A program made the translations under genes and the position numbers. The notes below the pieces were generated by a model. The model was not told the origin of the DNA and ran no database searches. It saw nothing but the letters and a program-made list of their open reading frames with translations. A DNA stretch of 63,818 nt, the filler included, from an uncultured bacterium (GTDB taxonomy: Bacteria; DAOPZR01): the NCBI GenBank assembly GCA_964637655.1. It is 4 parts of 4 records of this genome, joined end to end, with 100 filler letters (N's around TTAATTAATTAA, not from the genome) between each part and the next. Parts side by side here need not be neighbours in the genome. Positions count along the whole stretch, not along the records: positions 16,109 to 31,997 come from CAZWUZ010000052.1; 3 more parts are not named here. One strand, written 5' to 3'. Positions 5,741-31,343 of this stretch are shown here, piece after piece. Position 1 is the stretch's first letter; each line of letters starts with the position of its first letter.

Positions 5741-5776
5741 GGGGTGGAATCCTTTCCTCTGCAACAGGATGGGCTG

Positions 5777-5806
5777 ATGGTAGCACGCGCGCACGGGCAG
5801 CGTCAA
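5777..5806 (-). promoter_or_regulatory. sigma70-type promoter for nupC
   Basis: Minus strand TTGACG-N18-TACCAT with extended TG. Confidence 0.55.
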
Positions 5807-5827
5807 GCGCGGTATGCTATACTCAAC

Positions 5828-5948: not shown

Positions 5949-5971
5949 TGCCCGCGCTCGGAGGATGGCTG

Positions 5972-6358: not shown

Positions 6359-6359
6359 T

Positions 6360-9300
6360 ATGCTCCCCCCGCTGCAGTACGACGTCATTCTCGCCGGCTA
6401 CTGTATTGCGCTGACCGCCTTTGCTGCGGTTGCCCTGCTCGTCTCCCGCTCGAGCGAGGTGCGCTTCCCGTGGGCCTGGCTGAGCGGCTTCGCCGCGGCG
6501 CACGCGGCGAGTGTCGGACTGCACCTGCTCGGGTTCGCGATGATCCACCCGCTGCTCGCCGCCGGCCGCCTGCTGCTGCTCATCGCCTCGTTCATGCTGC
6601 TGCTCGAATTCACCCGCCGCGCCACGGCCGCGCTGGGGGGCGCCACCTTCGGACCCTGGGTGCATCTGCTGCCGCTGCTCCCCGGGTTGAGCGGTGCCTT
6701 TGGCGGCGAGCGCCCGTTGCTCACCACGGTTACGCTGATTACCGGGTGGAGTGGTATCGCCTGGGTGGTGCTGGTCGTGCTGCGCGTCTGGCGCATTGCC
6801 GCGCCCCGCCAGCAGCTGCTGCTCTTTGCCGTGCTCTCGGTGCTCGGCTTCTTCGGGCTGACGATGACCGCGCAGATGCTCGCGGTCCCCGGCCCCGCCG
6901 GCGTCTTTGCCGCCATGCTTGCCGATCTGCTTCCTCTGCCCGCACTGCGCACCCCCGAATTCTTCATGGCGGTGCTCTGGCTCTGGGCAGCGGCGGCGCT
7001 CTGGATCCAGGCGCATGCCGGGCAGCGCCCGATGCGCCTCGTCCCCTTCGGGCTGCTGCCGCTGCTGCTGGTCGTCATGGTCGGCGGCTGGCTGGCGGCG
7101 GAGCAGACGGAACAGTACGGGCGCCAGCTCAACGAGGAATTTCTGGTCGCGCGCACGCGCACCGCGGCCGCCGGACTGGCGCGCGACCTTACCGGTCGCC
7201 TGCACGGGGTGGCGGCTGACCTGCGCAATCCCGCGTTCTGGGAACTCTTCGCGCAACTCAACCATATCCGGGAGGTCAATCCCGACGTGCGCGACGCCTA
7301 CCTGCTCGGCGCGCGCGACGGGGAAATACTCTTCGTCGTCGATCCCGACACCACCATCTACACGCCTGACGACGAGGCACTGGTGGTGCCCGGTACGGTC
7401 TATGATGAAGCGTCGCCGGAGATGGCCGCGGTCTTTCGCACGGGCGAGGCGCTGGTTGAAGGGCCGCTCCCCGACCGCTGGGGGGTCTGGGTAACCGGGG
7501 TGGCGCCGGTGTCGGAAGCCGGGGCATCGCTGCCGCTGGCACTGGCGATGGACATCGATGCGCGCGACTGGCTGCGCACGCTCGGGCAGTACCGCATGTT
7601 CGCGGTGGTCACCGCCATGGTGCTGGCACTCTTCCTTATCGCCTCGTTCACCATCTTCGCCGTCTCGCGCGAATCAACCGACCGGGTGGCCGCTTCCGAA
7701 TCGCGCTTCCGGGTCATGTTCGAGAACGCCCCCGAGGCGATCATCATCTACAGCGCGGTTACCGGGCGCATCCTGCGGGCCAATCCCTTCGCACTGCAGT
7801 GGCTCGGCTACTCGCTGACGGAGATTACCGCGCTGACGCTTCCGGCTATCGAGACGGCGGGTCGCGAGAGCGTGCGTGCGGTGCTGCGCACCGGCATGGT
7901 CTTCGCCCGCGAGGCGCGCTATCGGCGCAAGGACGGCACCCTCGTCGATGTCGAGGTGACGCGTGGCGGCATCCGCTACCAGGGGGAAAACTGCCATCTG
8001 GCGTTCGTCCGCGACGTCACCGAGCGGCGGCAGGCGGAGGAGCGGGTGCGGCAGAGCGAGGCACGCTACCGCGCCATCGTCGAAGACCAGACCGAGTTCA
8101 TCGTGCGCCTGCTGCCTGACGGCACGCTCACGTTTGTCAACGACGCCTATTGCCGCCATGCCGGGCGCTTGCCGGCGGCACTGGTCGGCAGCGACTTCCT
8201 CACGCGCGCTGACGCGGAACTGCGCGACCGCCTCGCGCTGCTCGCGCCCGAACAGCCGCTGGTGACCGCGGAGTTCCGCCTCACCGGCGGTGACGGGGAA
8301 CGCTGGGAGGAATGGACGTTCCGCGCCATCGCCGCGCCCGACAGCGGCAGCGCGGAACTGCAGGCGGTGGGGCGTGACATCACCGCGCAGCGGCGCGCGG
8401 AGGAGGAACTGCGCGCGGCCAAGGCGGAGGCCGAGGCGGCCACCCGCGCCAAGAGCGACTTCCTCGCCAACATGAGCCACGAGATTCGCACCCCGTTGAA
8501 CGCGGTGATCGGCATGACCGGGCTGCTGCTCGGCACGCGGCTCGATGCGGAGCAGCGCGACTATGTCGAGACGGTGCGCGTCAGCGGCGACGCGCTGCTC
8601 GGAGTAATCAACGACATCCTCGATTTTTCCAAGATCGAGGCGGGACGGCTCGAACTCGAACAGGCGCCGTTCGACCTGCGCGACTGCCTCGAGGACGCGC
8701 TCGATCTGGTCGCAGTACGCGCGGCGGAGAAGGGGCTGGCGCTGGTGGCGCATTTCGACCCGTCGCTCCCGGCCGGGCTGACGGGCGATCTCGTGCGCCT
8801 GCGGCAGGTGCTGGTCAACCTGCTGACCAACGCGGTCAAGTTCACCGCGGCGGGTGAAGTGGAACTGACCGCCTACGCGGAGGTCACTGACGGGACCGCC
8901 ACGGTCACCTTCGCGGTGCGCGATACCGGCATCGGCATTCCCGCGGAGGCGCAGGCGAAACTTTTCACCTCGTTCACCCAGGCGGATACCTCGACCACGC
9001 GCAAGTTCGGCGGTACCGGCCTCGGGCTGGCCATCTGCCGCCGGCTGGTCGGTCTGATGGGCGGGCAGATTGCTGTCACCAGCACCCCGGGACAGGGGAG
9101 CACCTTCACCTTTGCCGTTGCCGCGCCGGTGGCGCCGGGGCATGCGCGTTCCGCTGAAACGGCAGCCCATGCGGCACTCGCGGGCTGCGCAGTGGCGCTC
9201 TCTGATGACAACGCCGCCAGTCGCCGCGTGCTGTACGACCTGCTGCGCACTGCCGGGTGCCGCGTGACTGACTGGGACGGATGTTCCCGCCCGGAGGCGA

Positions 9301-10340
9301 CACTGGCGGTCGCGGCCTTCAGCAGCGTCGGCGCCGCTGCCCGCGCGCAGGCCGCCTGCGCCGCCTGCGGCCCGGTACCCTGCCTGCTGCTGGTACCCCT
9401 CGGCGAGCGCCCGTCCGGCGGCTGCGGCGGCTGCGGCATCATCGCCCGCCCCGCCCGTCGTGAGCAGCTGCTCACCACGCTGGCCGCACTGCGTACCGGC
9501 AGCTGCCTGCAGGATGCCGCATCGGCCCCGGCGTCAGCGACCGCGCTCGCGCAGCGCTGCCCGCTGCGTATTCTCGTGGCCGAGGATAATGCCATCAACC
9601 GCAAGGTCATCCGCCTGCTGCTCGAACAGAGCGGCTATCATCCCGATATCGTCGAGGACGGGGCGCAGGCGGTGACAGCGGTGCTGGCCGGCGACTACGA
9701 CGTGGTGCTCATGGATGCGCAGATGCCGGTGCTCGACGGATTGTCGGCCACGTGCCGTATCCGCGCGGAGAAGACGGGCCGCCAGCCGCGCATCGTCGCG
9801 GTGACGGCCGGCGTGGCGGAGGAGGAGAAGCGCGCCTGCCGCGAGGCGGGGATGGACGACTATCTCCCCAAGCCGATCCAGGCGGCGGCGTTGCACGAAC
9901 TGCTCGAACGGCTCGCCCGGCAGGTGGCGCCGGCGGCAGCCGCCGCGCCGGCCGCGCTCCCCCCGCCGCCGTTCGCTGCCGACGGTGACTACGACCCGGC
10001 TGCGCTCGCGCAGATGACCGACGTCGGGCCGGACGGCGTGGCGGTGGCGCTCGAACTGCTCGGCATGTTCGCGGCCGACACGCCGGCGGCACTGGCTGAA
10101 CTTGCCGGGTTGCTGGCGCGCGGCGAGGCCGACGCGGTGCGCAAGGCGGCGCATGCGCTCAAGGGCGCCTGCGGGGTCATCGGGGCACCGGCACTCTGGC
10201 AGGCGGCACAGCGCGTCGAGTTTGCCGGCAAAGCAGGCGACCTTGCTGCCGCGGCAACCGCGCTGGCGGAACTGCGCGCCGCGTGGGAGCGTTTTCAGCC
10301 CGTGCTCAGCAGCGAGCAGCAGCGCCTGCAGCAGCTGTGA
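6360..10340 (+). CDS. Membrane hybrid sensor histidine kinase (multi-TM, 2 PAS, HisKA, HATPase, pseudo-REC, REC, Hpt)
   Basis: [15 protein letters not shown]-box, [32 protein letters not shown] receiver and AHALKGA Hpt motifs. Confidence 0.95.
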
Positions 10341-11839
10341 ACGCGCCGCGCGCGGCGGTGGTCGCCGCGGCACTGCTGACCACGGGACTCGCGCTGTGGT
10401 GGATCAGCGACGGGGCCGGTTCCACCGCAGCACTGGTACGCCTCCAGCCCGATGACGCCTATTACTACTTTCTGACCGCGCAGCATATCCGCGTCGACGG
10501 GATGTCCGCCTTCGACGGCAGTGCCCCCACCAACGGCTATCATCCGCTCTGGATGGCCTGCTGCGTGCTCTTCGCGCTGACGCCCGTGCGCGCCATGCTG
10601 CTCGGCTGGCTGCTGACGCTCGCGGCCGCCTCGTACCTCTGGCGCCTGCTGCGCCAGTGGATGGCACCGCCGGCCGCCGCGGCCGGCGTGGCGCTCTTCC
10701 TGCTCAATGCGCGCATCATCATGAACGCGCTCAACGGGCTGGAGACCGCGATGCACACGCTGCTCTTTGTCGCGGCGGTGCTGGCGGTGTGGCGGGCGGC
10801 AGGGCAGCCGTCGCGCGGTCGCGCCGCCGCTGCCGGGATCGCCATCGCACTGCTCTGGCTGTCGCGCACCGACGCGGCGTTTTACTGCCTCGCGCTGCTG
10901 GCGTGGTTCTGCTGGCAGGCGCCCGCGCTGCGTGCACGTGTCGTCGCGCTGGGTGCCGGCCTCCTCCCGCTCCCGCTGCTCTGGCTCGGGTGGAACCTGC
11001 ACGCGTTCGGCAGCATCGTGCAGACGAGCGGCAGCGCCATCCCGTTCGTGCTGCGCGAGGGAGGGCTGCTGGCGGCAACTCCGGGCGCAGAATGGCGGTA
11101 TGGCATCGGCAAACTTGCCGCGTGGCTGACCGATGGCGTCGGTTTTGCCACCGGCTGGCCCCCGGTGTTTTTCTGGGTGTCGCTCGGCGGCGCGCTGGTG
11201 CTGCTCGCCCGCAGCGGTGACGCGTTGCGTCCGCTGCGCCGCCTGCTCGTGCTGCTCTGGGGCGCGGCCGCGTTGCTTGTGCTTGTCCATACCCTCGTGC
11301 GCTGGCACCCGACACACTGGTATTTCCCGTCGCTGATCGTGCTGCACCTGCTGACGCTGACCCTCGCGCTGCGGCGCGTGCCGCCTGCCGCCGCGCGCCT
11401 GCTGCCGCTGCTGCTGGTGGTGCTGCTGCTCTGGCAGGGCGTGCAACTGTACGCGTGGCGGGCGGGGGATTACCCGTGGCAGACGGAACTGCTGGGCGCG
11501 GCGCAGTGGCTGCGTGTGCATACGCCGCCGGACGCCATCGTCGGGGCGTTCGACAGCGGCATCCTCGGCTGGTACAGCGGGCGCACGGTGGTCAATCTCG
11601 ATGGCGTGATCAACAACGAGGCGGCAACCGCCATCCGCGCGCGGTCGCTCTTCGCGTATATGCGGCAGCGCAAAGTGCAGTGGTATGCCGACCATGACCC
11701 GTACATGCGGCAGTTGTTCGCCCCGTTCGGCGGCGACCCGTGCGGCATGACCTACCGCGAGATGGCGGTCATCGACCATCCGGGGGTGGCGCTCAACGGC
11801 TGCCCGGTAAAGGTCTTCGCGCTCACCTGGCCGCAGTAA
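10337..11839 (+). CDS. Polytopic membrane protein, GT-C (PMT/ArnT/RgtA-like) glycosyltransferase-like
   Basis: DDAYYYF...TNGYHPLW, NGLET and NLDGVIN motifs; many TM helices; GTGA coupling to the kinase. Confidence 0.7.
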   Translation: MNAPRAAVVAAALLTTGLALWWISDGAGSTAALVRLQPDDAYYYFLTAQHIRVDGMSAFDGSAPTNGYHPLWMACCVLFALTPVRAMLLGWLLTLAAASYLWRLLRQWMAPPAAAAGVALFLLNARIIMNALNGLETAMHTLLFVAAVLAVWRAAGQPSRGRAAAAGIAIALLWLSRTDAAFYCLALLAWFCWQAPALRARVVALGAGLLPLPLLWLGWNLHAFGSIVQTSGSAIPFVLREGGLLAATPGAEWRYGIGKLAAWLTDGVGFATGWPPVFFWVSLGGALVLLARSGDALRPLRRLLVLLWGAAALLVLVHTLVRWHPTHWYFPSLIVLHLLTLTLALRRVPPAAARLLPLLLVVLLLWQGVQLYAWRAGDYPWQTELLGAAQWLRVHTPPDAIVGAFDSGILGWYSGRTVVNLDGVINNEAATAIRARSLFAYMRQRKVQWYADHDPYMRQLFAPFGGDPCGMTYREMAVIDHPGVALNGCPVKVFALTWPQ

Positions 11840-11880
11840 ATTCGTATCTTTTTTTTTCACTGACCAGCATGAACAGCGCA

Positions 11881-11986
11881 CAACGTTCACCGCGGAGCAC
11901 ACAGAGCACACGGAGCGGTTGCGGTATGCCAGTGGTGCCGCACTCTCCGCGCGGGAGAGACACACAGGGCAGCGGCTGAACAGTAC
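11881..11986 (+). repeat. CACAGAG-type intergenic repeat element
   Basis: TTCACCGCGGAGCACACAGAGCACACGGAG core as at 30961-31343; right end GGCTGAACAGTAC resembles the MITE end. Confidence 0.65.
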
Positions 11987-12005
11987 CTGAAAAGATACAA
12001 TTTCC

Positions 12006-12138
12006 GCAACTATTCACCCTCATCCAACCTTCCCCCTCGCAGAGGGGGAAGGCAAACACCCTCTCCCGCCCGCGGCGGGAGAGGGCAGGGTGGCCCACAG
12101 GGTCGCTCTGCAAGATGCGTGGGTGGCTGAATAATTAC
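12006..12138 (+). repeat. MITE/REP-like element, copy C
   Basis: GCAACTATTCACCCTCATCCAACCTTCCCCCTC ... GGGTGGCTGAATAATTAC; closely matches copies A and D. Confidence 0.8.
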
Positions 12139-12149
12139 CAATTTTCCAT

Positions 12150-12178
12150 TTGGCAGCAGGCATCCAATATGTTATATT
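12150..12178 (+). promoter_or_regulatory. sigma70-type promoter for the K+ channel gene
   Basis: TTGGCA-N17-TATATT with extended TG, 8 nt before the ATG at 12187. Confidence 0.55.
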
Positions 12179-12186
12179 CCCCGACT

Positions 12187-13188
12187 ATGGAGATGATGCG
12201 GCAGAAACTGTTCGTGGCGTTCGCTCTGGTGCTGGCGGTGTTCTGCACCGGGGTGGCGGGCTACCGGCTGATCGAAGGGTGGTCGCTGCTCGACGCGGTC
12301 TACATGACGGTGATCACGCTCGGCAGCGTCGGCTACGGCGAGACCAACCCTTTGCACCCGGCCGGGCGGGTCTTTACCATCGTGCTGATCGGCATGGGGA
12401 TGAGCGTCTACGTTTATGCCCTGACGACGATCACCGCCTTTTTCGTCGAAGGGGAACTCGGGGGCGTGCTGCGGAGGAAACGGATGCAGAAGAAACTCGC
12501 GAAACTTGCCGGGCATTACCTCGTCTGCGGCAGCGGGGCGGTGGCGCGGCATATCGCCGCGGAACTGGCGCAGACCGGGCGCCCGTTCGTCTTCATCGAC
12601 AGCGACGCGGCATCGCTGCAGCTGGCACAGGCGGAGTTTGCCGATGCCCCCTGGCTGCAGGGGAATCCCGCGGACGACGAAACGCTGCAGACGGCGGGCA
12701 TCGACCGCGCCGCGGGCGTGGTGGTGGCGCTCGACACCGACAAGGACAACGTCTTTGTTGTCATCACCGCACGCAGTCTGCACCCGCAGGTGCGCATCGT
12801 TACCGCGGCGCACGGCACGCACGCGCATGCCAAGTTGCGGCGCGCGGGGGCGGACGCGGTCGTGTCGACCGAGGCGATCGGCGGCCTGCGCATGGCCTCG
12901 GAACTGGTGCGCCCCACCGTGGTCTCGTTTCTCGACCAGATGCTCCGCTCGTCGGATGCGCCGGTGCGGTTCGAGGAAATCGCCGTCAGCGACTGCCGCG
13001 CGCTGGCAGGCAAAAAGCTGCGCGAGGCGGACATCAACCGCCGCACCGGCCTGATTGTCATCGCCATCCGCGACGCGCTGGCCGGTTGCTTCATCCATAA
13101 CCCGCCGGCAGACCACTGCCTGCGGGAACAGGATGTGATGATTGTGCTCGGGGACAGCCGGCAGCTCGCCGCGCTGCGGGAACTGTAG
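12187..13188 (+). CDS. Potassium channel with RCK (TrkA-N/TrkA-C) domains
   Basis: Two TM helices with a pore loop ending GSVGYG; HYLVCGSG, DKDNVF and AGADAVVS RCK motifs; start could be 12187-12196. Confidence 0.9.
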   Translation: MEMMRQKLFVAFALVLAVFCTGVAGYRLIEGWSLLDAVYMTVITLGSVGYGETNPLHPAGRVFTIVLIGMGMSVYVYALTTITAFFVEGELGGVLRRKRMQKKLAKLAGHYLVCGSGAVARHIAAELAQTGRPFVFIDSDAASLQLAQAEFADAPWLQGNPADDETLQTAGIDRAAGVVVALDTDKDNVFVVITARSLHPQVRIVTAAHGTHAHAKLRRAGADAVVSTEAIGGLRMASELVRPTVVSFLDQMLRSSDAPVRFEEIAVSDCRALAGKKLREADINRRTGLIVIAIRDALAGCFIHNPPADHCLREQDVMIVLGDSRQLAALREL

Positions 13189-13189
13189 C

Positions 13190-13978
13190 ATGACGCGGGC
13201 GAAGAAGGGGAAACGCCGCGCGCCGGAGGGGGCTGACCTGCCGGCTGCCGGGTCGGCTCCGTCCATGCCGCTGACGGGCTCCGCCCCCTGGTCACCCGTG
13301 CCCGTGACGCCGGAAACCACCGTTGCCTCGTTGCTCAAGATGCTGCGCCGCGCCCTGTGGGGGGCGATGGTGCGCAATGCGCTGGTGACGCTCTTTGCCT
13401 GCGGCTGCATCGCGCTGCTCGCGGTCATCATGCTCGAGCGCGAACAGCACCGGCAGCAGCTGCGCGAGGTTGAACTGCGGCGTGATTTCTACGAGCAGAA
13501 ACTGCGCCGCGCGGTGCAGGACCAGGCTGAGGCGCATCGCTACGACGGGTACTATCTTTCCGTCGACCTTGAGAATGACGAACTGCGCATCATGCGCAAC
13601 GGTGACGTCATCCGCCGCGCCATCTGCGCGCACGGGGCGGGACGCGTGCAGCGCGCCGGCCGCTGGTTCGATTTTTCCACCCCCGTCGGGCGCCGCACGG
13701 TGCTGCGCAAGGAGACCGACCCGGTCTGGATCCGTCCCGACTGGGCGTGGCATGAACAGGGGGAGACGCTGCCGCAGAACCTCACGCTGGCGCAGCGCGA
13801 GGTGCGCGGCATACTCGGCAAGTACCGCCTGCAGACGGGCGACGGCTACGATATTCACGGGACCAATGGCGGGGTGCGCCCGGGCGACTACTCGCACGGC
13901 TGCATCCGACTCAACGACGACGACCTCGAAGAGGTGCACAAACTGATCAGGGTCGGGGCGCCGGTCTACATCTACTGA
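13190..13978 (+). CDS. L,D-transpeptidase (YkuD family)
   Basis: IHGT...SHGCIRL catalytic motif; one TM helix. Confidence 0.88.
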   Translation: MTRAKKGKRRAPEGADLPAAGSAPSMPLTGSAPWSPVPVTPETTVASLLKMLRRALWGAMVRNALVTLFACGCIALLAVIMLEREQHRQQLREVELRRDFYEQKLRRAVQDQAEAHRYDGYYLSVDLENDELRIMRNGDVIRRAICAHGAGRVQRAGRWFDFSTPVGRRTVLRKETDPVWIRPDWAWHEQGETLPQNLTLAQREVRGILGKYRLQTGDGYDIHGTNGGVRPGDYSHGCIRLNDDDLEEVHKLIRVGAPVYIY

Positions 13979-14006
13979 AACAGGACGTACGGGGAGGGGA
14001 CGTACC

Positions 14007-15095
14007 ATGAGTGCTCACAAGTCGAAACTGCGGACCGCGCTGGAGTACGGCATCGCCGGCGGGCTCTTCATCCTGCTGCTGGCGTGGATGGCCGGCGTGT
14101 TCCATGACAAGGTCGGGGCGGACGCCCCGGTGCCCGCCCCGCCGCCGGTCACCGGCGCGCGTCTCACCGTGACGGCGGAAACGCTGGCGGCGACGAGCGA
14201 ACTGGCCGGTACCGTCGAACCCTACCAGCAGGCTGACCTGATGGCCAAGGTCAGCGGCACGGTGCAGGTGCTCAACGTGCGCGAGGGCGCGCGCGTCAGT
14301 GCCGGGCAGGTGCTCGCCGTCATCGAGTCGCCCGAACTGCAGGCGCAGGTGCTGCAGGCGAGCGGGGGCGTGCAGGCCTCGGCGGCGCGTATCGCGCAGG
14401 CGCAGCGCGACCTCGCCCGCTACGAGAACCTCTACCGCGAGGGGGTCATCTCGCAGCAGGAACTCGAACGGGTACGCACTGAGTTCGCCCTGTCGCGCGC
14501 CTCGGAGACGAGCGCGGCCGGTGCGGTCAACGCGGCGCAGGCGTTCGCTGACTACCGCTACGTGCGCGCGCCGTTCAGCGGACTCGTCGCCCGCCGCCAC
14601 GTCGATCCGGGCGCCCTGGTCGGGCCCGGCCAGCCCATCCTCACCATCCATGACCCGTCACGCTGGCGGTTCGTGGTCGCGCTGCGCGCGCGTGAATTGG
14701 GAACGCTCGCCATTGGCGACACGCTGACGGTCATGCTCGATGAAACGGGTGAAACACTGGCCGGGAAAGTGGCGGAAATCACCCCGGCGTTCGACGCGGC
14801 CAGCCGCAGCGCCACGGTCAAACTCGACCTGCCGTCGCGCCCGAACCTGCGCGCCGGGCTCTTCGGGCGGGTGCGTTATGCCGCCGGCGACCGGCAGGTG
14901 CTTGCCCTCCCGGCTGACGCGGTGCGCCGCGCCGGCACCCTCGCGTTTGTCCGCGTGGCTGTGCGGGTTGGTGACGGTGAAACCGCGGAAACGCGCTACG
15001 TGCGGCTTGGCGCAACACTGCCGGACGGGCGTTGCGAGGTGCTTTCCGGGGTGCAGCCGGGGGACATCGTGCTGACCGGTGCGGAGGCGCGGTGA
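14007..15095 (+). CDS. RND efflux periplasmic adaptor (MFP)
   Basis: KVSGTV..LNVREG..V.AGQVL lipoyl-like motif, coiled coil, APFSG and LRAGLFG. Confidence 0.9.
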   Translation: MSAHKSKLRTALEYGIAGGLFILLLAWMAGVFHDKVGADAPVPAPPPVTGARLTVTAETLAATSELAGTVEPYQQADLMAKVSGTVQVLNVREGARVSAGQVLAVIESPELQAQVLQASGGVQASAARIAQAQRDLARYENLYREGVISQQELERVRTEFALSRASETSAAGAVNAAQAFADYRYVRAPFSGLVARRHVDPGALVGPGQPILTIHDPSRWRFVVALRARELGTLAIGDTLTVMLDETGETLAGKVAEITPAFDAASRSATVKLDLPSRPNLRAGLFGRVRYAAGDRQVLALPADAVRRAGTLAFVRVAVRVGDGETAETRYVRLGATLPDGRCEVLSGVQPGDIVLTGAEAR

Positions 15096-15096
15096 C

Positions 15097-16008
15097 ATGC
15101 GGCACGAAACGCCCGACGAACTGAAAAACGCTCCGACCGGCTGGACCGCCGACATCGTCAAGGTCTTCCTGACCTCGAAGATGTCGGTCCTGCTCATCAT
15201 CGCCTCGCTGGTGGCGGGCGCCTTCGCGCTGCTCTTCACGCCGCGCGAGGAGGATCCGCAGATCATCGTCCCGGTCATCGACGTCGCGGTTGCCATGCCC
15301 GGCGCCTCGGTACAGGAGATCGAGCGGCTCGCTGCCACCCCGCTGGAAACCATCCTCAAGGAGATACCCGGGGTGGAAAACGTCTACACCATGGCGCGTC
15401 CCGGGTCGCTGCTCGCCACCGTCCGCTTCTACGTCGGGCAGGACCGCGAGCAGTCGCTGACCAAGGTCTTCACTGCGCTCGAGGCGAACCGCCACCGCGT
15501 CCCGCCGGGACTGCCGATGTGGCAGGTGACGCCCGTCGATATCGACGATGTCCCCATCCTCTCGCTGACCCTCTACGCGCGTGATCTGGCGGCGTCCGAC
15601 CTGCGCCGCATCGCGCTCGAACTGCAGCAGGATGTTCACCAGCTGCCCGATATCGGGAAGACCGCGGTGGTCGGTGGCGAGCGGCGCGAAGTGCGCCTGA
15701 CGCTTGACCCCGCCCGCCTCGCGGCACATCACCTGACACCGCTCGACATCGCGCAGCGCCTGCCGGCGGCCAACCTCAACCTGCCGGGCGACCGCCTCGT
15801 CAGCGGGCGGGAAACGGCGGTCTATGCCGGGCCGTTCCTGCGCCGCGCCGACGACCTGCGCCGCCTCGTGGTGGCGGTCAATGACGGCAAGCCCGTCTAC
15901 CTCGAAGACGTGGCGGACATCACTGACGGCATCGAGGAACCGCTCACCTATACCCGCATCGGGTTCGGGCCCGGCGCGCCGGCGGAGGTGCGCGGCGACG
16001 GCAGTGAA
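15097..16008 (+). CDS. RND efflux permease (AcrB/AcrD/AcrF family), truncated by contig end
   Basis: TPREEDPQI, MPGASVQEIE and DVPILSLTL motifs; no stop before the linker. Confidence 0.9.
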
Positions 16009-20170: not shown

Positions 20171-21304
20171 TTACGGCAGGAACTTCGACGGGTCCTTGAG
20201 CTTGTGCGGCAGGTACTCGTCGATGACGTAGTTGAGCCCCCACTTGGCGAGCGCCTGCTGCTCGGCGCGGACCCCCATGCGCATCAGCTTGTCGATGGCC
20301 TTCTGCCACGGCTTGTGGCGCTGGAAGAAGGGGTCGTTCTTGAGCGCGTCCTTGGCCCGCTTGATGTCGATCTCCTTTAGCGGGTGCGTGGGGAGCTTGA
20401 ACGCCTCGATGTCGTCCGGCGTCACCCCGAGGAAATGCGCCTTGGGGACGGAGAAGAAGCGCGAGACGTGTGCGGCATTGCCCGAGCCGACCTTGAGCGT
20501 GCGGTAGATGTTGGCGATACCGTACGGGTCGCAGTCGACGAAGACGTAGACGGGGATCTTTTTCTCGTCGGCGAGGCGGCGGATGAAGCGGCGGCAGGAA
20601 CGCGTCGGCACGCCTCCCATGCTGACGAGGATGCAGTTGGCCTTCTTCCAGAAGTTGTGCGCCGCCAGCCGCTGGAACATACCGCCGGTCTCGATGGCGA
20701 GGATGAACTTCGCCTTCGTCTCGAAGCCGAAGTGCTCGACCGACGAGGGGATGGAGTAGGAACCGCTGCCGAAGGCGGTGCAGTCGATGCGGATGGTCTT
20801 CTTGGTTTCCCAGTCGCGGTCGATGACGATGAGTTGGCCGGCGACCTGGCCGCCATGCTCGTCGGGGTAGAAGCGCAGTTCCTCGCGGCTGACATTCGAG
20901 GTGGAGAAGAGCGCCTCGATGTCGTCCATCACCGCGTCCGATTCCTCCTGCGCGTCGAACCGTGCCTCCTCCCAGTTTTTCGACTGGTAGTACGCGTCAC
21001 GCTTGGTGGCGAAATCGTCGGTCTCGACCAGTTCCTTGGAGAGCGCCATCAGGCGCATGGTCTGGGCGAAGGTGCGGATGGTGCCGACCGACATGGTGCG
21101 GTGCTTCTTCTGGCGCCCGATCTCGAAGTAGCCGAGCCGCTCGTCGTACTTGACGTTGGAGAGCGCGCGGATGGGAAAGGAAATTTCCGGTTTCTGGTTC
21201 TTGAGGATGCGCTGGTAGACGGCATCCGCCTCGCTGCTGATGCGCTCGATGACCTTCTTGTCGCCGGCGTTGGTGACGCCCGGCCGCTTGTCGTGCTTTT
21301 TCAT
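20171..21304 (-). CDS. top6A: DNA topoisomerase VI subunit A (Spo11-like)
   Basis: ATKRDAYY catalytic Tyr region, IETGG, GGVPTR, DCDPYG Toprim motif and AEQQAL. Confidence 0.95.
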   Translation of the reverse strand: MKKHDKRPGVTNAGDKKVIERISSEADAVYQRILKNQKPEISFPIRALSNVKYDERLGYFEIGRQKKHRTMSVGTIRTFAQTMRLMALSKELVETDDFATKRDAYYQSKNWEEARFDAQEESDAVMDDIEALFSTSNVSREELRFYPDEHGGQVAGQLIVIDRDWETKKTIRIDCTAFGSGSYSIPSSVEHFGFETKAKFILAIETGGMFQRLAAHNFWKKANCILVSMGGVPTRSCRRFIRRLADEKKIPVYVFVDCDPYGIANIYRTLKVGSGNAAHVSRFFSVPKAHFLGVTPDDIEAFKLPTHPLKEIDIKRAKDALKNDPFFQRHKPWQKAIDKLMRMGVRAEQQALAKWGLNYVIDEYLPHKLKDPSKFLP

Positions 21305-21305
21305 G

Positions 21306-23039
21306 TCAGTCGATGCTCCTGGTGCGCTCGAGGATGTCGGTCAGGTTGGCGACCGCCTTGTCCCGCTGCTTGTCGGGGAACTTGAGGATGTCCTGCAGCG
21401 CGGCGACGAGTTGCGGGATGTAGGTTTTGATATAGGATTTCTTTTTTTCCGCGTCCGCGATGCGGCCCTGCTTGCGGATGTGCAGGCCGAGGCGCCGCCC
21501 GCATTCCTGCAGCGCCAGTTTCATCTCCTTGGTGATTTCCGGGTAGGAAGCGATGGCCTCCTTGCTCTCGCTGGTGAACGGCACCCAGGCGGAGGCGATG
21601 TGCACGGCGACCACCAGCGGGGCGATGGGGAGCGCCCCCTTGGGATGGGTCAGTCCGTAGTTGCGCCAGACCGTGGAGGTGACGCACTTGCTGATGGCGC
21701 AGGCCGACTGCTGGTACTGCAGCGGCACGCGGTTGGCAAAGCGGATCAGTTCCGCCGGCTCCTCGCACGGCAGCTTGCCGCCGTAGGCGAGCGCCGCCTC
21801 GACAAGGAACGGGTTGCCGCGATAGACCGCGGGAACGCGCGACACTGCGGTATAAAGTTCCGCGTCGGGGACCAACCGCTTGAGCCCGGCCAGCATCAGT
21901 TCCTCGCCGATGGGCGACAGGCAGTTGGTCGGCGGGCGCTGGATCTTGGTCTGCTGGATGCCGTGGTAGAGCGCCTCGACCTCGTGCCGGGTCATCGCCT
22001 TCGGCTGGCGGCCGGGGGAAAGCTTGGCCGCGGTGCAGATGGCCTCGGCGACCGTGCCGCCGGCGCGGGAAAACTCATGGCTGAGAAAGCCGCGCAGGTT
22101 GCGCGCCGTCGTCGCCTTGAGCATCTGCATGAGCATGCCGAGTTCGACCCCGTACGGGTGCGGCTTGATCGCCACCGCCTCGACCGGGGGCTGCGCGGTG
22201 GCGCGCTCGTAATGTGCCATCTCCTGGTCGGGGGCCTTGTAGTCGAGCGTGACGTGCGGGTTGGCGACGAGCACCTGGTTGAGGTATTCCTCGACCGAGC
22301 GCTTGCCGCGCTGGAAGGTCGCCTCGAGCGCGATCTCGACGCGCGTGCCGTGCTCGGGCGCCCACTCAATCTCGATGTCCTTGGTCACCTCGGGCGCGTT
22401 CTTCTGCGTGTTGAGCATGATCTCGAAGTAGTGCGCGGGATGCTTGGCGCCGATGCGCGAGGTGATCCTGCACGGCTTGCCCGTGGTCAGCTGTCCGTAC
22501 ATCGCGGCGGCGGAGATGCCGATCCCCTGCTGTCCGCGTGACTGCTTGAGCCGGTGGAACTTCGACCCGTAGAGCAGCTTGCCGAAGATTTTCGGCACCT
22601 GCGACTTGACGATGCCCGGCCCGTTGTCCTCAATGATGACGGTGAAACGGTTTTCCGCGGTCTGGATCAGTTCGACCTTCAGCGCGGGGAGGATGCCCGC
22701 TTCCTCACAGGCGTCGAGCGCGTTGTCGACCGCTTCCTTGACCGTGGTGAGCAGCGCCTTGCGCGGGTTGTCGAAGCCGAGCAGGTGGCGGTTCTTGGTG
22801 AAGAACTCCGCCACGGAAATCTCGCGCTGCGATTCCGCCATCTCGATGGCGGTCTTTCTCGCCGGCGGGGGCGCCGGTTTGCGCGGGGCGCGCTCCTTTT
22901 TCTCCGCTTTCGCCGGGGAAGGCTTATGGGCCAGGCCGGGGAGGGCGGGCTGCGCGTGCTTCTTTGCCGCCTTCTTTGCGGCCGGTTTCTTCGCTGCGGG
23001 CTTTGCCTTTTTGGGCTTCGCCTTCTTTGCTGGTACCAT
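21306..23039 (-). CDS. top6B: DNA topoisomerase VI subunit B
   Basis: [48 protein letters not shown] and VPFTSESKE motifs; GGAGG RBS. Confidence 0.95.
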
Positions 23040-23150
23040 CACTGCCTCCGTGTCCTGTCGCGCAGCGCGGGCACACGCCCGACGCTGCTGGTGCGGCATC
23101 AACCTTGCATTGCGGGGAGTTATACCGTATCCCCTCCCGTAGCGGCCGGC

Positions 23151-23193: not shown

Positions 23194-24354
23194 TCAGCCG
23201 TCGGCCGCCGCGAGTAGTTCGTCCAGTTTCGCCAGCAGGGCGCTGTTGTCCTGCTGCGGATGCTCCCGGGTGTATTGCGCGAGATTTGCCCGGTATTCCG
23301 GAAGACGGGAACGGAATTCGTTCAGGTGCGTGCGGAAACCGCCCGGGTCCCGCGCCACCTGTTTCCCGTCGCAGTGCAGGCCGTAACCGAGTTGCTCGAG
23401 GTAGAGCGCGTTGAGTGTCTGTTCAAACTGCCCGTCGAGCGGCAGCGAGAGGACGGGCTTGCCCAGGTGTACCGCTTCGCTCATCAGCGAGAACCCGCCG
23501 CCGGTGACGACCGCGGCAGCGCGGGTGAAGTCGGCGAAAAAGAGATCCCGGTCGCGCGGCTTGATACGCAGGTGGCGGTATCTGCCCGCGAACCGCTGCG
23601 GGTCGAAACCGTAGACAGTGCAGGGAATGCCGGCGGCTTCGAGCGCGTCGAGCAGCGGCACGAAGGTGGCGGAGGTGTGGTAGACCAGCAGTTCGTCACC
23701 CGTCATGACCTGCCCGGTGCGGAGGTCTCTGCCCGCCTGGAAAATCTCCTCGCGCAGGATGGGTGGGAACAGGAACGTGTTGTCTGCGCACTCCGGGCGC
23801 AGCGGCGGGTAGAAAAAGGTGGTGACGAGGTAGTGCGTGCTGCGATGCACCTTTGCCTCCGTGATGGCGGCGGCGAGCAGGCGGTCGAACCCGTACTGCG
23901 CGGGGATGTGCAGGGCGCGATGGTCGCAGCGGGTGATGATGCTCATATTGTCGATGTTGATGACCGGGAGCCCCTTCCAGCGGCCGTAGCGGTGAGCCAT
24001 GGTCTCGAAGTCGGTGACCACCGCGTCGAACGCCTGCTCCGGGATGGCATTGATGGCGTTCAACGCCTGCAATTCCCGGAAGTTGATCACCGCTGCCGAG
24101 GGGATGCTGCGCAGCAGCGAGACGACCGTATCGAGCCGGTCGACCCGATTGCCCGCGTATTTCATGAACAGGCCGCGGATCTCGTCCACCCGCACGGCAT
24201 GCTCGTCACGGAAGGCGGCGCGCAGGTACGGCTCCGCTTTGCCCGAGGCAAGTATGACCAGCCGGTGCCCCCGCGCCAGCAGGTGGCGGATGACCGCCTC
24301 CGAGCGCGTCGCGTGTCCCATCCCCTCGCCTACCACCCCGTAAAGCAGATTCAT
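23194..24354 (-). CDS. GT-B glycosyltransferase (MJ1255/VC2487-like)
   Basis: [32 protein letters not shown] and QFEQ.LNA.YL..LGYG motifs. Confidence 0.88.
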
Positions 24355-24400
24355 TTCTGTCTCTCCCCCCCTACCAGGCGTCAAAATAATGACGGATTTT

Positions 24401-24421
24401 TGTGGATAACTCTGTGGATAA
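24401..24421 (-). promoter_or_regulatory. Two tandem consensus DnaA boxes
   Basis: TGTGGATAA (reverse complement TTATCCACA) at 24401-24409 and 24413-24421. Confidence 0.7.
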
Positions 24422-24427
24422 CCTGTG

Positions 24428-25111
24428 TCAATGTGTCAGTATGGCCCCTTCCTTGGCCCCTTCCTTTCGCGCGATAATTACTCTGCTGGCATGATGTTGC
24501 ACAGCCAGCGGGGACGGGGAATGATTGATTGTCTTGCGGTGCCAGAAGCAGATATGGGTGGGGTCGAGGGTATAGTACCAGTTGTCGGCGAATTGCTGCA
24601 GGTCATGCCAGCACTCGGTCATCAGCACGAGGAGGCCGCCCGGGGAAACTGTTTCACACAAGTGCAGAAACTCGGCGCGCGGGTCGCGGAAATGCTCGAT
24701 GACCTCGGTGGCAAAGACGGCGTCGAAGGTGCCGGCCGGCAGGTCGGGAAAGAAGAGCGGGTCGAAATCAGCGCAGGCAAAGCCGCGCGCGCGCAGCAGG
24801 CCCGAGAGCACCGGCGTATGCCCGCAGCCGTAATCGAGGCAGCGCGCGCCCGGCGCGAGGTGCGGCAGCGCGGGGAGCAGCGCGCGTTCGAGGAAGGCGA
24901 CATAGCGCGGGTCGTCGGCGCGGTTGTTATGCTGCAGGTAGCGGGCGCGGGCTTCTTCGATGGTCGGATGCTGCGCCGGGTCGACGGTGACGATCTGGCA
25001 GCGCGGGCAATGCTGCAGCCGCCGCGGCAGCGTGCCGGCAGGTACCGGCACGGTTTCCGCCTGCCCGCAGAAGCGGCAGCACTCACCCGGGGCTGGAACG
25101 GTCGCGGTCAC
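24428..25111 (-). CDS. Class I SAM methyltransferase with N-terminal zinc-ribbon
   Basis: CRFCG...CPRC, ARYLQHNN, LDYGCG, EVIEH and WYY..DPTHICF motifs; GTG start in a GTGA overlap. Confidence 0.82.
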   Translation of the reverse strand: MTATVPAPGECCRFCGQAETVPVPAGTLPRRLQHCPRCQIVTVDPAQHPTIEEARARYLQHNNRADDPRYVAFLERALLPALPHLAPGARCLDYGCGHTPVLSGLLRARGFACADFDPLFFPDLPAGTFDAVFATEVIEHFRDPRAEFLHLCETVSPGGLLVLMTECWHDLQQFADNWYYTLDPTHICFWHRKTINHSPSPLAVQHHASRVIIARKEGAKEGAILTH

Positions 25112-25350
25112 GCGGCGTCTATCCCGTGGACGGAAACGGAGGCCGTCACGTTGTGTCCGTCCCATGGGCGGTGACAGTGACGGTCATGCTGTGTCCGTCC
25201 TAAGAAGGGGAACAGAGATGGTCGCGCTGCGTTTGTTCCGTGAACGGAAACGGTGGCAGTCACGCTGCGTCCGTCGCGTGAACCGGAATGGTGATGGTCA
25301 CGCTGTTTCCGTCCCCTGGGCGGGAACAGTGACGGTCATGCTGTGCCCGT
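25107..25350 (-). repeat. Degenerate 38-bp tandem repeat (6 full units plus a partial one) encoding chained mini-ORFs
   Basis: Units start at 25107, 25145, 25183, 25221, 25259, 25297 and 25335 with an exact 38-bp period; each begins GTC(A/G)YG on the + strand. Confidence 0.88.
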
Positions 25351-26956
25351 CGGTCGCGGCGGCCGCGGTCGCGCCGGCCACGGCAAAATCGTCCGCGATT
25401 TCCGCCAGCCGCGCGGGGGGGAGCGCCACGCCGGCAGCAACGGTGAAGCCGGCGGCGGCGGGATGCACGGTTATCGCCTGCGCCTGCTGCGCGGCATAAG
25501 CGAGGCAGAGTTCGTCGAAGGCATGGGCGAAACGTTCGGCATCGAGCAGCGCCGGCAGCGCGGGCGGCACGTCGACAGTAAAGCGAAGGCGCTGCAGCGG
25601 GTCGGTGGCGGCGAGGCGCTGCGCCAGCACGGCGCTGAACGCGGCGGCATCGTCGGCAACCGCGAGCAGGTCGGCACCCTGCTGCCGGTACGCATGCGCG
25701 GCGGCGGTGTCGCGCACGAGCGCGGCAGCGTCGGCCGGGGCGCGGGTGACGGTGCGCGGCAGGCCGCGCACGTCGGCGAAACAGTCGTCGAGCCGCAGCT
25801 GCAGGCGACGGAGCAGGCGCACGTCGAGGAAGGGGCGCAGTTCGTCACGGGCGAGCAGCGCGGCCAGCCGGCGCAGGGCGTTGAGGATGGTGACGACGCA
25901 GGCGACGCGCAGCGTTTCGCCGCGGGCGAAGGTGTCGAGCGCGGCGGCCAGTTCGTCGAGGATGCTGTCGAGCAGCGCATAATCGACGGCGGTGTCGAGG
26001 GCGGCGGCGGCTTCCGCCTCCCCGAGTTCCGCGAGTAGTCCCTGCGCGAACTGCAGGCGCGCGGCGACCGCGGTGACGGTGCGCTGCAGCTGACCGGCAC
26101 AGCGCACGGTGGCGGCCACGGTGACCTCGAGCTGCGCGGTGTCGAAGCGCTGCGGGTCGGGCTGGCGTTCCACCTGTGCCCGCGCGCGGCGCAGCAGCTG
26201 CCGCACCTTGTCACCCGGCATGACCGCGGCATGCGCGGCGAGCACGTACGGTGAGGGCTGCGTCTCGAGCAGCAACATGGCGGCGGCCGCGGTCTGCAGG
26301 TAGGCGGCGCGGTCCCAGCCGACGATGCCGGCGATGACGGGGTTGGCGGCATAGGTCAGGTCGCCCGTCAGGCAGAGCGGGCCGCAGGTGATGAGGACGC
26401 TGTCGGGACTGTGCCCCGGTGCGGCATGCAGTGTGAGTGCGAGCCCATGCCCGCGCAGTTCATGTCGTGGGAGTCCGCAGGGGGCGTCGGCGACAGGCGA
26501 TACCTGCCAGTCGACATGGGGAGCAGCACCGGCGAAGAGGGGGAGCGCAACGTCAACGCGCGGGGCGGGACGGTCGAAGAGCGCCGCCTGGGTGAGCGCG
26601 GCATCGCCGTCGCGCAGGGGGACAACCGCGGCCTGGTGCGCGGCCACGGTGTCCTGCGGCCGCACGAGTCCGGTTTCCCGGTCGAGCGCGGCGCTGTGGT
26701 CGCAATGGCAATGCGTGAGCAGGAAGAGGCGCGGCAGTGCGGCACAGTCGGGTGCGTCGAGCGGGGCGCGCACGCGCCCGGTATTGGCGCTGCTCCCCGG
26801 GTCGATGCAGACGATACCCGCAGACGTGCGGAGCAGCAACGTGGTGACGGCGAAGGGCTCCGCCGCGGGTGACAGCAGGAAACACTGCGTACCGGGCACC
26901 TGCGGCAGCGGCTGCCACGTGTCGAACACCAGCGCGGGGAAGGCAGTGCCATCCAT
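25298..26956 (-). CDS. MBL-fold metallo-hydrolase with C-terminal degenerate histidine-kinase-like region
   Basis: IDPG, THCHCDH, PGHSPDS and TGDL motifs; helical C-terminal half ending in an HATPase-like remnant. Confidence 0.75.
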   Translation of the reverse strand: MDGTAFPALVFDTWQPLPQVPGTQCFLLSPAAEPFAVTTLLLRTSAGIVCIDPGSSANTGRVRAPLDAPDCAALPRLFLLTHCHCDHSAALDRETGLVRPQDTVAAHQAAVVPLRDGDAALTQAALFDRPAPRVDVALPLFAGAAPHVDWQVSPVADAPCGLPRHELRGHGLALTLHAAPGHSPDSVLITCGPLCLTGDLTYAANPVIAGIVGWDRAAYLQTAAAAMLLLETQPSPYVLAAHAAVMPGDKVRQLLRRARAQVERQPDPQRFDTAQLEVTVAATVRCAGQLQRTVTAVAARLQFAQGLLAELGEAEAAAALDTAVDYALLDSILDELAAALDTFARGETLRVACVVTILNALRRLAALLARDELRPFLDVRLLRRLQLRLDDCFADVRGLPRTVTRAPADAAALVRDTAAAHAYRQQGADLLAVADDAAAFSAVLAQRLAATDPLQRLRFTVDVPPALPALLDAERFAHAFDELCLAYAAQQAQAITVHPAAAGFTVAAGVALPPARLAEIADDFAVAGATAAAATDGHSMTVTVPAQGTETA

Positions 26957-27009
26957 GGTCGCGATTGTAGCACGCGCGGCGCGTGGCAACAACAGCAGAG
27001 AACGCCGGC

Positions 27010-27038
27010 TTGACAGCGTCGGGCCGGCAGCGTACGCT
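27010..27038 (+). promoter_or_regulatory. sigma70-type promoter for the CapA-family gene
   Basis: TTGACA-N17-TACGCT, 10 nt before the ATG at 27049. Confidence 0.55.
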
Positions 27039-27048
27039 TGCCGCCACC

Positions 27049-28257
27049 ATGAGCATACTGCGCCTGTTTCTGATCGTGCTGCTGCTGGCGGGGGCGGGAT
27101 GTGCCCGCGCACCGGAGCCGACCGGAGTGCCTGTCGTGCCACACGAGGCGACGGGGACGCTGACGCTGCTCGGTGATGTCATCGTGCATACGCCGGTGGC
27201 GGCGGCGGCGTTCGACCGGCGGTCCGGCGACTACGATTTCCGCCCGATGTTCGCCCCCGTGCGCGAGCGGCTCAGCGCGGCGCACCTGACGACCGCAGTG
27301 CTGGAAACCCCGGTCTCCGACACCGGCCAGCGGGTGACGGGGTTCCCGCTGTTCAACGCGCCGCGGCGTATCGCGGACGCGCTGCAGTGGGCGGGGGTCG
27401 ACCTCGTCTTCACCGCGACCAACCACTCACTCGACCGCGGCGAGGCGGGTATCGTGCGCACGCTGCGCTACCTCGATGAACTTGGACTGCCGCACACGGG
27501 GACGCGCCTGCGCGCGCCGGCGCCCCCGTTCGTCATTCTCCCCGGGGGCGGGCTGCAGTTCGGTTTTGTCAGCTACACCACCGCCACCAACGGGCTGCCG
27601 GTGCCCGACGGCAAGCCGTGGCTGGTCAACCTGCTCGGGGAGACGAACGCGGCGGCGGATATCGCGGCGGCGCGCGCGGCGGGGGCGGACGTCATCGTCG
27701 CCGCCCTGCATGCCGGCTGGGAGTACCAGCGGCTGCCGTCCGACGTGCAGGAAGCGGCGGTGCAGGCGCTCATCGACGCGGGGGCGGACATCATCACCGG
27801 CAGCCACGTGCACGTGGTGCAGCCGTGGGAACTGCGCGTGGCGCGCGACCCGCAGACGGGGGCGCGGCGTACGGTCTTCGTCGCGTGGTCGCTGGGCAAC
27901 CTGCTCTCCAACCAGTACTGGCGCTACTCCGACTACGGGCTGGCGGTAACGCTGCAGGCGCGCAAACGGGCGGACGGAACGCTGCACCTGACGGTGCGCG
28001 AGGTTGTGCCGCTCTGGGTGCAGCGCGACGGCGGCCGCGGCTACCTGCTGCGCGATGTGGGCACGGCTGACGCGGGGGACACGGCGCTGCCGGCGGCGGC
28101 GCAGCGGCGGATGGCGGAGATCCGCGTCGAAGTGACGGGGCTGATGCGCCACTGGGAAACAGCGGCGCGACTGCCGCTGCACCCCGATACTGCCCCGCCG
28201 CCGCCTTTGGTGCGCACGGCCTCCCCGCCCCCCTCCTTGACGCGCAGCGACGGGTAA
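27049..28257 (+). CDS. CapA family (PGA_cap) metallophosphoesterase-fold lipoprotein
   Basis: Lipobox AGAGC; GDVIVH, LETP, ATNHSLDRG, HAGWEY, GSHVHV and SLGNL motifs. Confidence 0.88.
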   Translation: MSILRLFLIVLLLAGAGCARAPEPTGVPVVPHEATGTLTLLGDVIVHTPVAAAAFDRRSGDYDFRPMFAPVRERLSAAHLTTAVLETPVSDTGQRVTGFPLFNAPRRIADALQWAGVDLVFTATNHSLDRGEAGIVRTLRYLDELGLPHTGTRLRAPAPPFVILPGGGLQFGFVSYTTATNGLPVPDGKPWLVNLLGETNAAADIAAARAAGADVIVAALHAGWEYQRLPSDVQEAAVQALIDAGADIITGSHVHVVQPWELRVARDPQTGARRTVFVAWSLGNLLSNQYWRYSDYGLAVTLQARKRADGTLHLTVREVVPLWVQRDGGRGYLLRDVGTADAGDTALPAAAQRRMAEIRVEVTGLMRHWETAARLPLHPDTAPPPPLVRTASPPPSLTRSDG

Positions 28258-30960: not shown

Positions 30961-31343
30961 GTACCACGGAGTACACGGAGAACGGCAACAGCTTGTTCAC
31001 CACAGAGCACGCAGAGCACACAGAGAACGGCACGGATGAGCGTGGCTCCCGCAGGCGGGAGCGAAAAAAGCACAGGCAAAAACTCTGTGCACAGCAACGG
31101 CTTGTTCACCGCAGAGCACGCAGAGCACACAGAGAACGGCACGGATGAGCGTGGCTCCCGCAGGCGGGAGCGAAAAAAGCACAGGCAAGAACTCTGTGCA
31201 CGGCAACGGCGTGCTCACTACAGAGTAAACAGAACACGCAGAGGAAAAATCGATGCGCCCAGCGGGCACTACCTTACTGGAATGGCGGAGCAGCGAACGG
31301 CACATCGCGACCGCTCCGTGTGTTCTGTGTGCTCTGCGGTGAA
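30961..31343. repeat. 109-bp tandem duplication of a CACAGAG-type element with an inverted terminal copy
   Basis: Units start at 30985, 31094 and 31203 (partial); 31314-31343 is a near reverse complement of the unit core. Confidence 0.85.

Follow-up and report, generated by a model that had tools for sequence, protein, structure and literature searches.

The stretch of DNA analysed here (the window) is 63,818 nucleotides long and comes from an uncultured bacterium, assembly GCA_964637655.1. Between a gene for a metallo-beta-lactamase (MBL)-fold protein and a methyltransferase gene, both on the minus strand, it carries a tandem array of 38-bp units whose short open reading frames (ORFs) link the two genes through a chain of stop/start overlaps. 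Tandem Repeats Finder (TRF) describes an array of period 38 with 6.8 copies, 68% matches, 0% indels and a score of 192. Cutting it every 38 nt on the minus strand from the ATG at 25339 gives seven units, numbered 0 to 6, which open in order with ATGAC, GTGAC, GTGAC, GCGAC, ATGAC, GTGAC and GTGAC. RTGA (R being A or G), in which a start codon overlaps a TGA stop, is retained at five of the six unit junctions (junctions 1-6), the exception being GCGA in the unit at 25225. A scripted walk from the MBL stop (25300-25298) proceeds unbroken to GTG 25301, GTG 25263 and GTG 25111, and the RTGA overlaps of this main chain lie at those three starts. The original prediction, made from the sequence alone, had described the 38-bp period and the mini-ORF translations, and both were matched exactly by TRF and by unit-by-unit translation. 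It had also held that the one mutated junction leaves coupling to the methyltransferase intact, and the overlaps do continue past it: a 51-codon ORF from 25263 stops at 25110-25108, on GTG 25111. Likewise, its units without indels have none in the TRF alignment. The coordinates of all features are collected in Table 1.

Units 0-5 agree pairwise at 23-33 of 38 positions, and so are 60-87% identical and 13-40% different. The least variable part of the unit is TGAC (columns 2-5), as judged by eye from per-column counts in which windows were not enumerated, and the encoded peptides share the pattern (M/V)-T-x-(T/S)-V-x-x-H-G-T-(D/N/E)-x-x. The array occupies a single locus in the 3.99-Mb, 485-contig assembly, where blastn returned self-hits on contig C52 and chance matches of at most 20 nt. 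We also compared Logan contigs from four runs, X1 and X2 from one study, possibly that behind the assembly, X5 from a second and X6 from a third. X1, X2 and X5 hold pieces of the seven-unit form with 0-1 differences, although no single contig spans the whole array; X5 contigs cover 25052-25347 with one difference, so an assembly artefact confined to a single data set can be dismissed. The window itself contains 274 N and joins at least two assembly contigs, with positions 1-16008 coming from C51 and the surroundings of the array from C52.

Table 1. Features of the repeat array and its flanking genes, in window coordinates
Feature	Position	Strand	Description
MBL-fold protein gene, 552 amino acids (as database copy P0001)	25298..26956	minus	Pfam Lactamase_B; stop TGA 25300-25298; last 13 codons are unit 0
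Methyltransf_23 gene, N-terminal CxxC...CxxC	24428..25111	minus	Pfam; start taken as GTG 25111, first codon of unit 6
Whole array	25095..25351	minus	Partial unit 25351-25340, six full units, first ~26 nt of a seventh
Unit 0	from 25339 (ATG)	minus	Translates as MTVTVPAQGTETA, then stop
Unit 1	from 25301 (GTG)	minus	Translates as VTITIPVHATDAA, then stop
Unit 2	from 25263 (GTG)	minus	Translates as VTATVSVHGTNAA-R..
Unit 3	from 25225 (GCG)	minus	Translates as ATISVPLLRTDTA, then stop
Unit 4	from 25187 (ATG)	minus	Translates as MTVTVTAHGTDTT, then stop
Unit 5	from 25149 (GTG)	minus	Translates as VTASVSVHGIDAA, then stop
Unit 6	from 25111 (GTG)	minus	Translates as VTATVPAPGECC.., the methyltransferase beginning VTATVPAPGECCRFCG..
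Unit 0, predicted MBL terminal beta-strand and tail S-MTVTV-PAQGTETA	25302..25339	minus	Homologue alignment; DSSP strand 539-543 of the model
Mini-ORF 1, 13 codons	25260..25301	minus	Overlaps the MBL stop by its GTG and the following GTG by its TGA
Mini-ORF 2, 51 codons	25108..25263	minus	Spans units 2-5 over GCGA at 25225; TGA 25110-25108 overlaps the methyltransferase GTG
Nested mini-ORF in unit 4, ATG, 13 codons	25146..25187	minus	Off the main chain; stop overlaps GTG 25149
Nested mini-ORF in unit 5, GTG, 13 codons	25108..25149	minus	Frame and stop shared with mini-ORF 2
Junction site of the one-unit relative	25083..25086	minus	TGA 25085-25083, ATG 5 nt upstream; window has one base fewer and lacks that ATG

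We sought the source of the unit in the MBL protein. A full HMMER scan found 208 relatives at E <= 0.001, with identities of 25-33% and lengths of mostly 530-590 amino acids. In a ten-member alignment, every protein has an alternating hydrophobic terminal strand after a G-G/A motif (LIIEIP, CTITLP, LVLIIP, VRLVCP), and MTVTVP, the start of unit 0, aligns with this terminal h-x-h-x-h strand in all ten, a proline coming next in five. An AlphaFold2 model built with 60 sequences (predicted local distance difference test score, pLDDT, 93.5; predicted template modelling score, pTM, 0.89) has residues 539-543 (S-M-T-V-T) as its last beta-strand, pairing with strand 530-533. By the homologue alignment and the modelled strand, the repeated 38 bases are the last coding bases of the MBL gene, predicted to specify the terminal beta-strand, roughly D-G-H-S-V-T-V-T-V-P-x-H-G. 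RTGA then corresponds to a Val/Met-Thr codon pair, RTG-ACN, which holds an in-frame potential start and an out-of-frame TGA. The MBL family is uncharacterised; its members, about 550-590 amino acids long, combine an MBL domain with a long helical middle part and, at the C-terminus, an alpha/beta domain that ends G-G/A..h-x-h-x-h-P and looks by eye like the end of a histidine-kinase-type ATPase domain. In the 614-residue MBL ORF, Pfam assigns only the N-terminal Lactamase_B domain and nothing past about residue 290. Foldseek against the PDB, in which the C-terminal domain was not searched separately, returned nothing beyond the generic MBL domain, as in GloB, NDM-1 and the like, and no functional clue.

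The X6 run contains a relative with a different allele. Contig 18 (1228 nt, depth 7.84) matches both flanks of the array, with 18 of 304 and 30 of 452 positions different (~94% identical), and joins 25086 to 25349, 35 letters replacing 262. The length difference of 227 nt equals 6 x 38 minus 1. X6 has a single unit, and just 3' of it an ordinary overlapping junction, ATGCGTGA, where the MBL stop overlaps the methyltransferase ATG. Translated by hand, its MBL tail reads ..T-D-R-C-S-V-T-V-I-V-S-A-H-A and then stops at TGA 25085-25083; the methyltransferase frame, also by hand, has a TGA and, seven codons after it, the start ATG-CGT-GAG-TGC-TGC = M-R-E-C-C-R-F-C. A comparison of copy number in relatives had been suggested by the original prediction, and copy number does differ between close relatives, at one in X6 and seven in the window, two alleles having been seen. 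Amplification in situ is supported, and it connects the MBL gene with the methyltransferase by an unbroken series of stop/start overlaps. What was amplified, however, is not the gene junction, as had been proposed. The 38 copied bases are the MBL 3' coding end, and the true junction lies just 3' of the unit in the relative.

Because the window lacks the relative's ATG, its methyltransferase can start only at an RTG inside the array. The protein opens with nine residues, VTATVPAPG, that duplicate the MBL tail. In homologous methyltransferases the start lies 1-5 residues ahead of the first CxxC, as in MHCPLC (genome G001) and in MPVQCPLC, MKCRLC and MLKEVKCALC (metagenome loci L017 and L020-L022), and for this reason the relative's arrangement is probably the older one. 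The relative's start is thus probably ancestral, and the window's GTG start and VTATVPAPG extension derived, having been captured from the tail of the neighbouring gene. With six extra units (228 nt), the MBL and methyltransferase frames coincide in the window, yet the MBL gene ends at the second unit. Of the 18 differences between X6 and the window in the methyltransferase part, 14 fall at third codon positions (about 14 per 101 codons). By hand count, the X6 unit differs from every window unit at 6-8 of 26 positions, and about 13 of 35 positions differ between X6 and the window across the unit region, far above the flanks. The array may be older than the split and have collapsed in X6, or the stretch may evolve faster than synonymous sites.

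Further relatives were sought more widely. The 1.3-kb locus had one true match in 61 genomes (its own included), namely G001, in the methyltransferase only and with no array. A phylum search returned two genomes; in G001 the methyltransferase (48% identity) and the MBL protein (30% identity) are encoded on different contigs, again with no array. Metagenome contigs searched with the methyltransferase yielded 29 loci at no more than 41% identity. In tblastn of five window proteins against 32 retrieved loci the methyltransferase alone matched, and TRF found no similar array there. Genome contigs searched with the MBL protein gave three partial matches (26-36% identity), and a homologue search with it returned the MBL protein only.

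We next consider how the methyltransferase could be translated. On the minus strand, a scan of 24300-27600 found neither promoter-like nor terminator-like sites, and the two terminator-like sites that it listed are both on the plus strand. No GGAGG-like motif was seen before GTG 25111. A sequence resembling an extended -10 box, TGCTACAAT (26964-26972, minus strand), ends 7 nt before the MBL ATG at 26956, which suggests one leaderless transcript beginning at that ATG. Upstream of the ATG of the G001 methyltransferase homologue, at a distance of 6 nt, TGCTACACT also looks like an extended -10 box, and from the placement of TGCTACAAT and TGCTACACT the lineage may use leaderless initiation widely. 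According to the original prediction, codon-position-neutral substitutions together with a separate promoter and ribosome-binding site for the methyltransferase would mark a decaying neutral minisatellite. Neither a promoter-like nor a GGAGG-like site was seen before the gene, and the difference between codon phases is weakly supported (P = 0.074 in the range test).

Taken together, we favour, at a probability of about one half, a frame-compatible variable-number tandem repeat (VNTR) at the gene junction, which would be tolerated, and perhaps mildly constrained, through its coupling of the methyltransferase to the MBL gene via two mini-ORFs. Repeated tandem duplication of the last 38 MBL coding bases would have generated a minisatellite in which each unit, opening RTG-ACN, supplies an in-frame start and an out-of-frame TGA. 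A 3n+2 unit that begins with RTGA places each start in the frame of the next stop at any copy number of at least two. From two copies upward, the array should therefore consist of a complete MBL tail, then mini-ORFs overlapping by 4 nt, then the downstream start. The MBL protein would keep one complete terminal beta-strand and stop at the TGA of the second unit. Ribosomes finishing the MBL gene would reinitiate at GUG 25301 and, after terminating, again at GUG 25263; having translated the 51-codon bridge, they would terminate and restart a last time at GUG 25111. Reinitiation would in this way carry translation of the methyltransferase and keep it translationally coupled, as it is directly via ATGCGTGA in the one-unit relative. 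The chain is an arithmetic consequence of the unit; one third of random periods would produce it, and by itself it shows no design. On this reading, the array is not a purpose-built device, and its peptides are by-products.

To ask whether selection has acted on the units, pairwise comparisons were made among units 0-5 in the mini-ORF frame and the two others, with ratios of nonsynonymous to synonymous change (pN/pS) by the method of Nei and Gojobori. Pairwise differences by codon phase are 69/36/71. The original prediction had noted that many amino acid changes are conservative, and second codon positions do vary about half as much as the others; the support is weak, however, with P = 0.011 in a one-sided, post-hoc permutation for phase 2 and P = 0.074 in the range test. 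That second positions vary little agrees with inheritance of a T/V/A/S/P-rich strand. For the mini-ORF phase pN/pS comes to 0.67, and for the other two to 0.74 and 1.33; on these comparisons there is no case for selection on the peptides.

Indels were considered separately, since the array has none against about 50 differences from consensus. For comparison with other old arrays, we took the 28 TRF rows in the genome with at most 80% matches, at least 100 nt and a period of at least 12, four of which are this array. Every other indel-free locus among them (C162, C354, C439 and C47) has a 3n period. Indels make up 4-23% in the rest of the non-3n rows, whose loci also hold a 92-97% array of another period; by inspection, we read these rows as alternative descriptions of young arrays. 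Among the few loci compared, ours is then the sole old array of the genome whose period is not a multiple of three, a hint that its frame or length is constrained.

Several results nevertheless weigh against the favoured reading, and most of them favour a purely neutral, decaying minisatellite, whose overlaps would be left over from the 3n+2 period while the methyltransferase is initiated independently. We modelled neutrality by placing the observed substitutions per unit at random, without indels, in 30,000 runs. The strict chain survives in 9.5% of runs; holding the last junction as observed raises this to 26.5%, and permuting columns gives 25.3%, so that its survival is not significant. At least five of six junctions stay intact in 4.6% of runs when all are random and in 11.5% with the last junction held. 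Chance chains of RTGA-linked ORFs are common in this GC-rich genome (1037 with two links, 335 with three or more), and an array on contig C36 shows RTGA links that join no genes. The genome is full of minisatellites (282 TRF rows), so that a neutral origin needs nothing special. GGGACGGA occurs in every unit 6-11 nt before the next start and could be a weak Shine-Dalgarno (SD) sequence, allowing independent initiation. The indel argument rests on few comparator loci, the signal from codon phases is weak, and two of the three phases have similar pN/pS. We place neutral decay on the unlikely side. It has to contend with the lack of a promoter-like site or a clear SD before GTG 25111, with the loss of the relative's ATG, which leaves the only nearby in-frame starts inside array units, and with the absence of indels from what is the genome's only old non-3n array. 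In addition, the units are 13-40% apart, compared with 6% for the flanks of the two lineages (14/101 third positions). The array must thus have lasted a long time, in contrast to the other non-coding arrays of this genome with their 90-97% identity.

Stronger forms of selection fare less well than the tolerated junction repeat. It is doubtful that selection maintains the array as a ribosome relay of several steps, in which length changes come free, the number of units sets methyltransferase made per MBL protein, and a new start and a nine-residue piece have been captured. A selected expression tuner, in which the number of termination-reinitiation steps sets the methyltransferase-to-MBL ratio and the one- and seven-unit alleles are adaptive, is improbable. 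Such a tuner would agree with one and seven copies in lineages about 6% apart, with the missing indels and the five retained RTGA junctions, and with the two entries (25301 and the nested ATG at 25187) that converge on the stop at 25108. Only two alleles are known, however, since X1, X2 and X5 are like the window; units of 60-87% identity are too diverged for frequent slippage and hence for a fast switch, and the statistics are compatible with neutrality. That the 13-residue variant peptides are themselves functional, as precursors resembling ribosomally synthesized and post-translationally modified peptides (RiPPs) or, as originally suggested, as substrates of the flanking enzymes, we regard as highly improbable. 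The shared peptide pattern and the less variable second codon positions would suit this idea, but the pattern is inherited from the beta-strand of the MBL tail, and pN/pS in the mini-ORF phase does not differ from that in another phase. The one-unit relative has no free-standing mini-ORF, one unit has no start and two are out of phase in the bridge ORF. Pfam and NCBIfam named no RiPP maturation enzyme or RiPP-type family in the neighbours scanned, though an MBL-fold protein or methyltransferase could in principle act on peptides, and the two genes are apart in the only other genome of the family (G001). Scarcely credible is a fused MBL-methyltransferase made by read-through or by shifting past the stops, even though the two genes share a frame (6 x 38 = 228 nt) with exactly two stops between them, both TGA. 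Read in frame 0, units 1-2 and 4-5 give an Arg-rich, out-of-phase sequence, in the relative the genes differ in frame and overlap in the ordinary way, and none of the 150 MBL-family matches listed exceeds 633 amino acids. Nor does a 4-Mb GC-rich genome give an obvious reason to expect a changed code, and selenocysteine or another recoding of TGA was considered but not adopted.

Other readings of the array were tried and rejected. A leader-peptide transcription attenuator is not indicated, the minus strand of 24300-27600 having no terminator-like site, the downstream gene being a methyltransferase, and the RNA fold of 25080-25360 being no better than chance (z = -1.05; 30 of 200 shuffles equal it). 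The GTCA...TGAC hairpins of the original prediction were not borne out beyond units 0 and 4, where alone TGACCGTCA is palindromic, and iteron or operator sites were dismissed, with the palindrome kept in only two of seven units. Three plus-strand ORFs over the array (24960-25499, 24425-25174 and 25343-26038) were discounted as genes; they have no Pfam match and are antisense to two genes with homologues.

Downstream of the methyltransferase, and all on the minus strand, lie a GT1_3 glycosyltransferase and then topoisomerase VI B and A by Pfam and NCBIfam, the two topoisomerase subunits at 20171-23102. Scans of the neighbours with both databases gave only Lactamase_B, Methyltransf_23, GT1_3, Top6A/B and uracil permease, two ORFs having no match. 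Between the methyltransferase stop at 24428 and the probable glycosyltransferase ATG at 24354, two perfect TTATCCACA 9-mers stand 12 nt apart (24401-24421, minus strand). A TRF row at 24401-24427 covers the pair, and there is no other perfect match in the 63.8-kb window. We take TTATCCACA to be the DnaA-box consensus, and the pair could mark a DnaA-regulated promoter or part of an origin.

Many of the genome's TRF rows have periods of 39-127 nt, 90-97% identity and 2.5-4 copies, young arrays being found for example at C3:7268-7547, C130:7149-7402, C49:12530-12740, C196:5094-5314 and C36:14359-14532. The last, upstream of a glutamine-amidotransferase-like gene, was considered as a second example of a linking array and set aside. 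It is an intergenic 52-bp array with the longest RTGA chain (seven links) and no link from a stop to a gene start. Arrays at 31015-31183 (C52:14907-15075) and on C130, C48 and C371 have a palindromic core like CTCCCGCAGG..GGGAG in their consensus units, and this shared core may be a dispersed element similar to repetitive extragenic palindromic (REP) sequences.

The significance of the locus depends on which reading holds. If a multi-step relay operates, frame-neutral junction VNTRs would be a general, evolvable tuner of intra-operon ratios in leaderless or SD-poor lineages. Should the relay work, tandem duplication at a gene end can be harmless, as a Val-Thr pair (GTG-ACN) and a 3n+2 unit suffice; the upstream protein would end normally, ribosomes would pass on, and the next gene would gain a start codon and an N-terminus. 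As a neutral left-over, the array would be merely a neat curiosity. In either case, annotators will find gene starts and ends ambiguous at such arrays.

In a keyword search of the literature, which cannot show that none exists, we did not find any description of a junction repeat that arose from the 3' end of the adjoining gene itself, and a single analogue emerged, discussed below. The individual links of the chain resemble known termination-reinitiation at overlapping genes. For ATGA/TGATG overlaps, 13 of 14 tested gene pairs were strictly coupled (Huber et al. 2019, PMC6728339). Each link of our chain is an RTGA stop/start overlap of this sort, and the relative has a plain overlapping pair. 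The window differs in having three successive links through non-conserved mini-ORFs rather than one link between two genes, and its links are known from sequence alone. As in other minisatellites and VNTRs, of which the genome has many, copies of a local sequence lie head to tail and their number varies with related strains. Unlike these, the array runs from the end of one gene into the beginning of another, has a 3n+2 period with a start/stop pair that is frame-compatible at any copy number, and is much older than the genome's other non-coding arrays.

By analogy, the closest known system is the mycobacterial interspersed repetitive unit (MIRU), reportedly described by Supply and colleagues in 1997. 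The original prediction had recognised no described system in the array, but MIRUs offer one: in one account, they are short repeats in an operon with an internal ORF coupled at -4 nt to the neighbouring gene, an arrangement that likely eases their insertion with minimal impact on expression (PMC12548453). Units of 40-100 bp in 40-50 copies per genome, with ORFs whose ends overlap adjacent genes and with polycistronic transcription, are given in another, a review (PMC3184786). Our array has similarly short units, at 38 bp just under the MIRU range, in tandem and in variable number. It likewise lies between cistrons of co-oriented genes, its ORF starts and stops overlap the flanking genes by 4 nt as a matter of architecture, and in both cases expansion need not disturb downstream translation. 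MIRUs, however, are dispersed over about 40-50 loci and believed to be mobile, with start codons as their insertion sites and 4-nt target repeats, whereas blastn places our array at a single locus. Dispersal and mobility are missing here because the array was made locally from a coding tail, the 3' end of the upstream gene. The lineage is also unrelated, and the units are far more diverged (68% matches). If the relay works, tandem duplication of a gene end would be a simple evolutionary route to a MIRU-like architecture without a mobile element.

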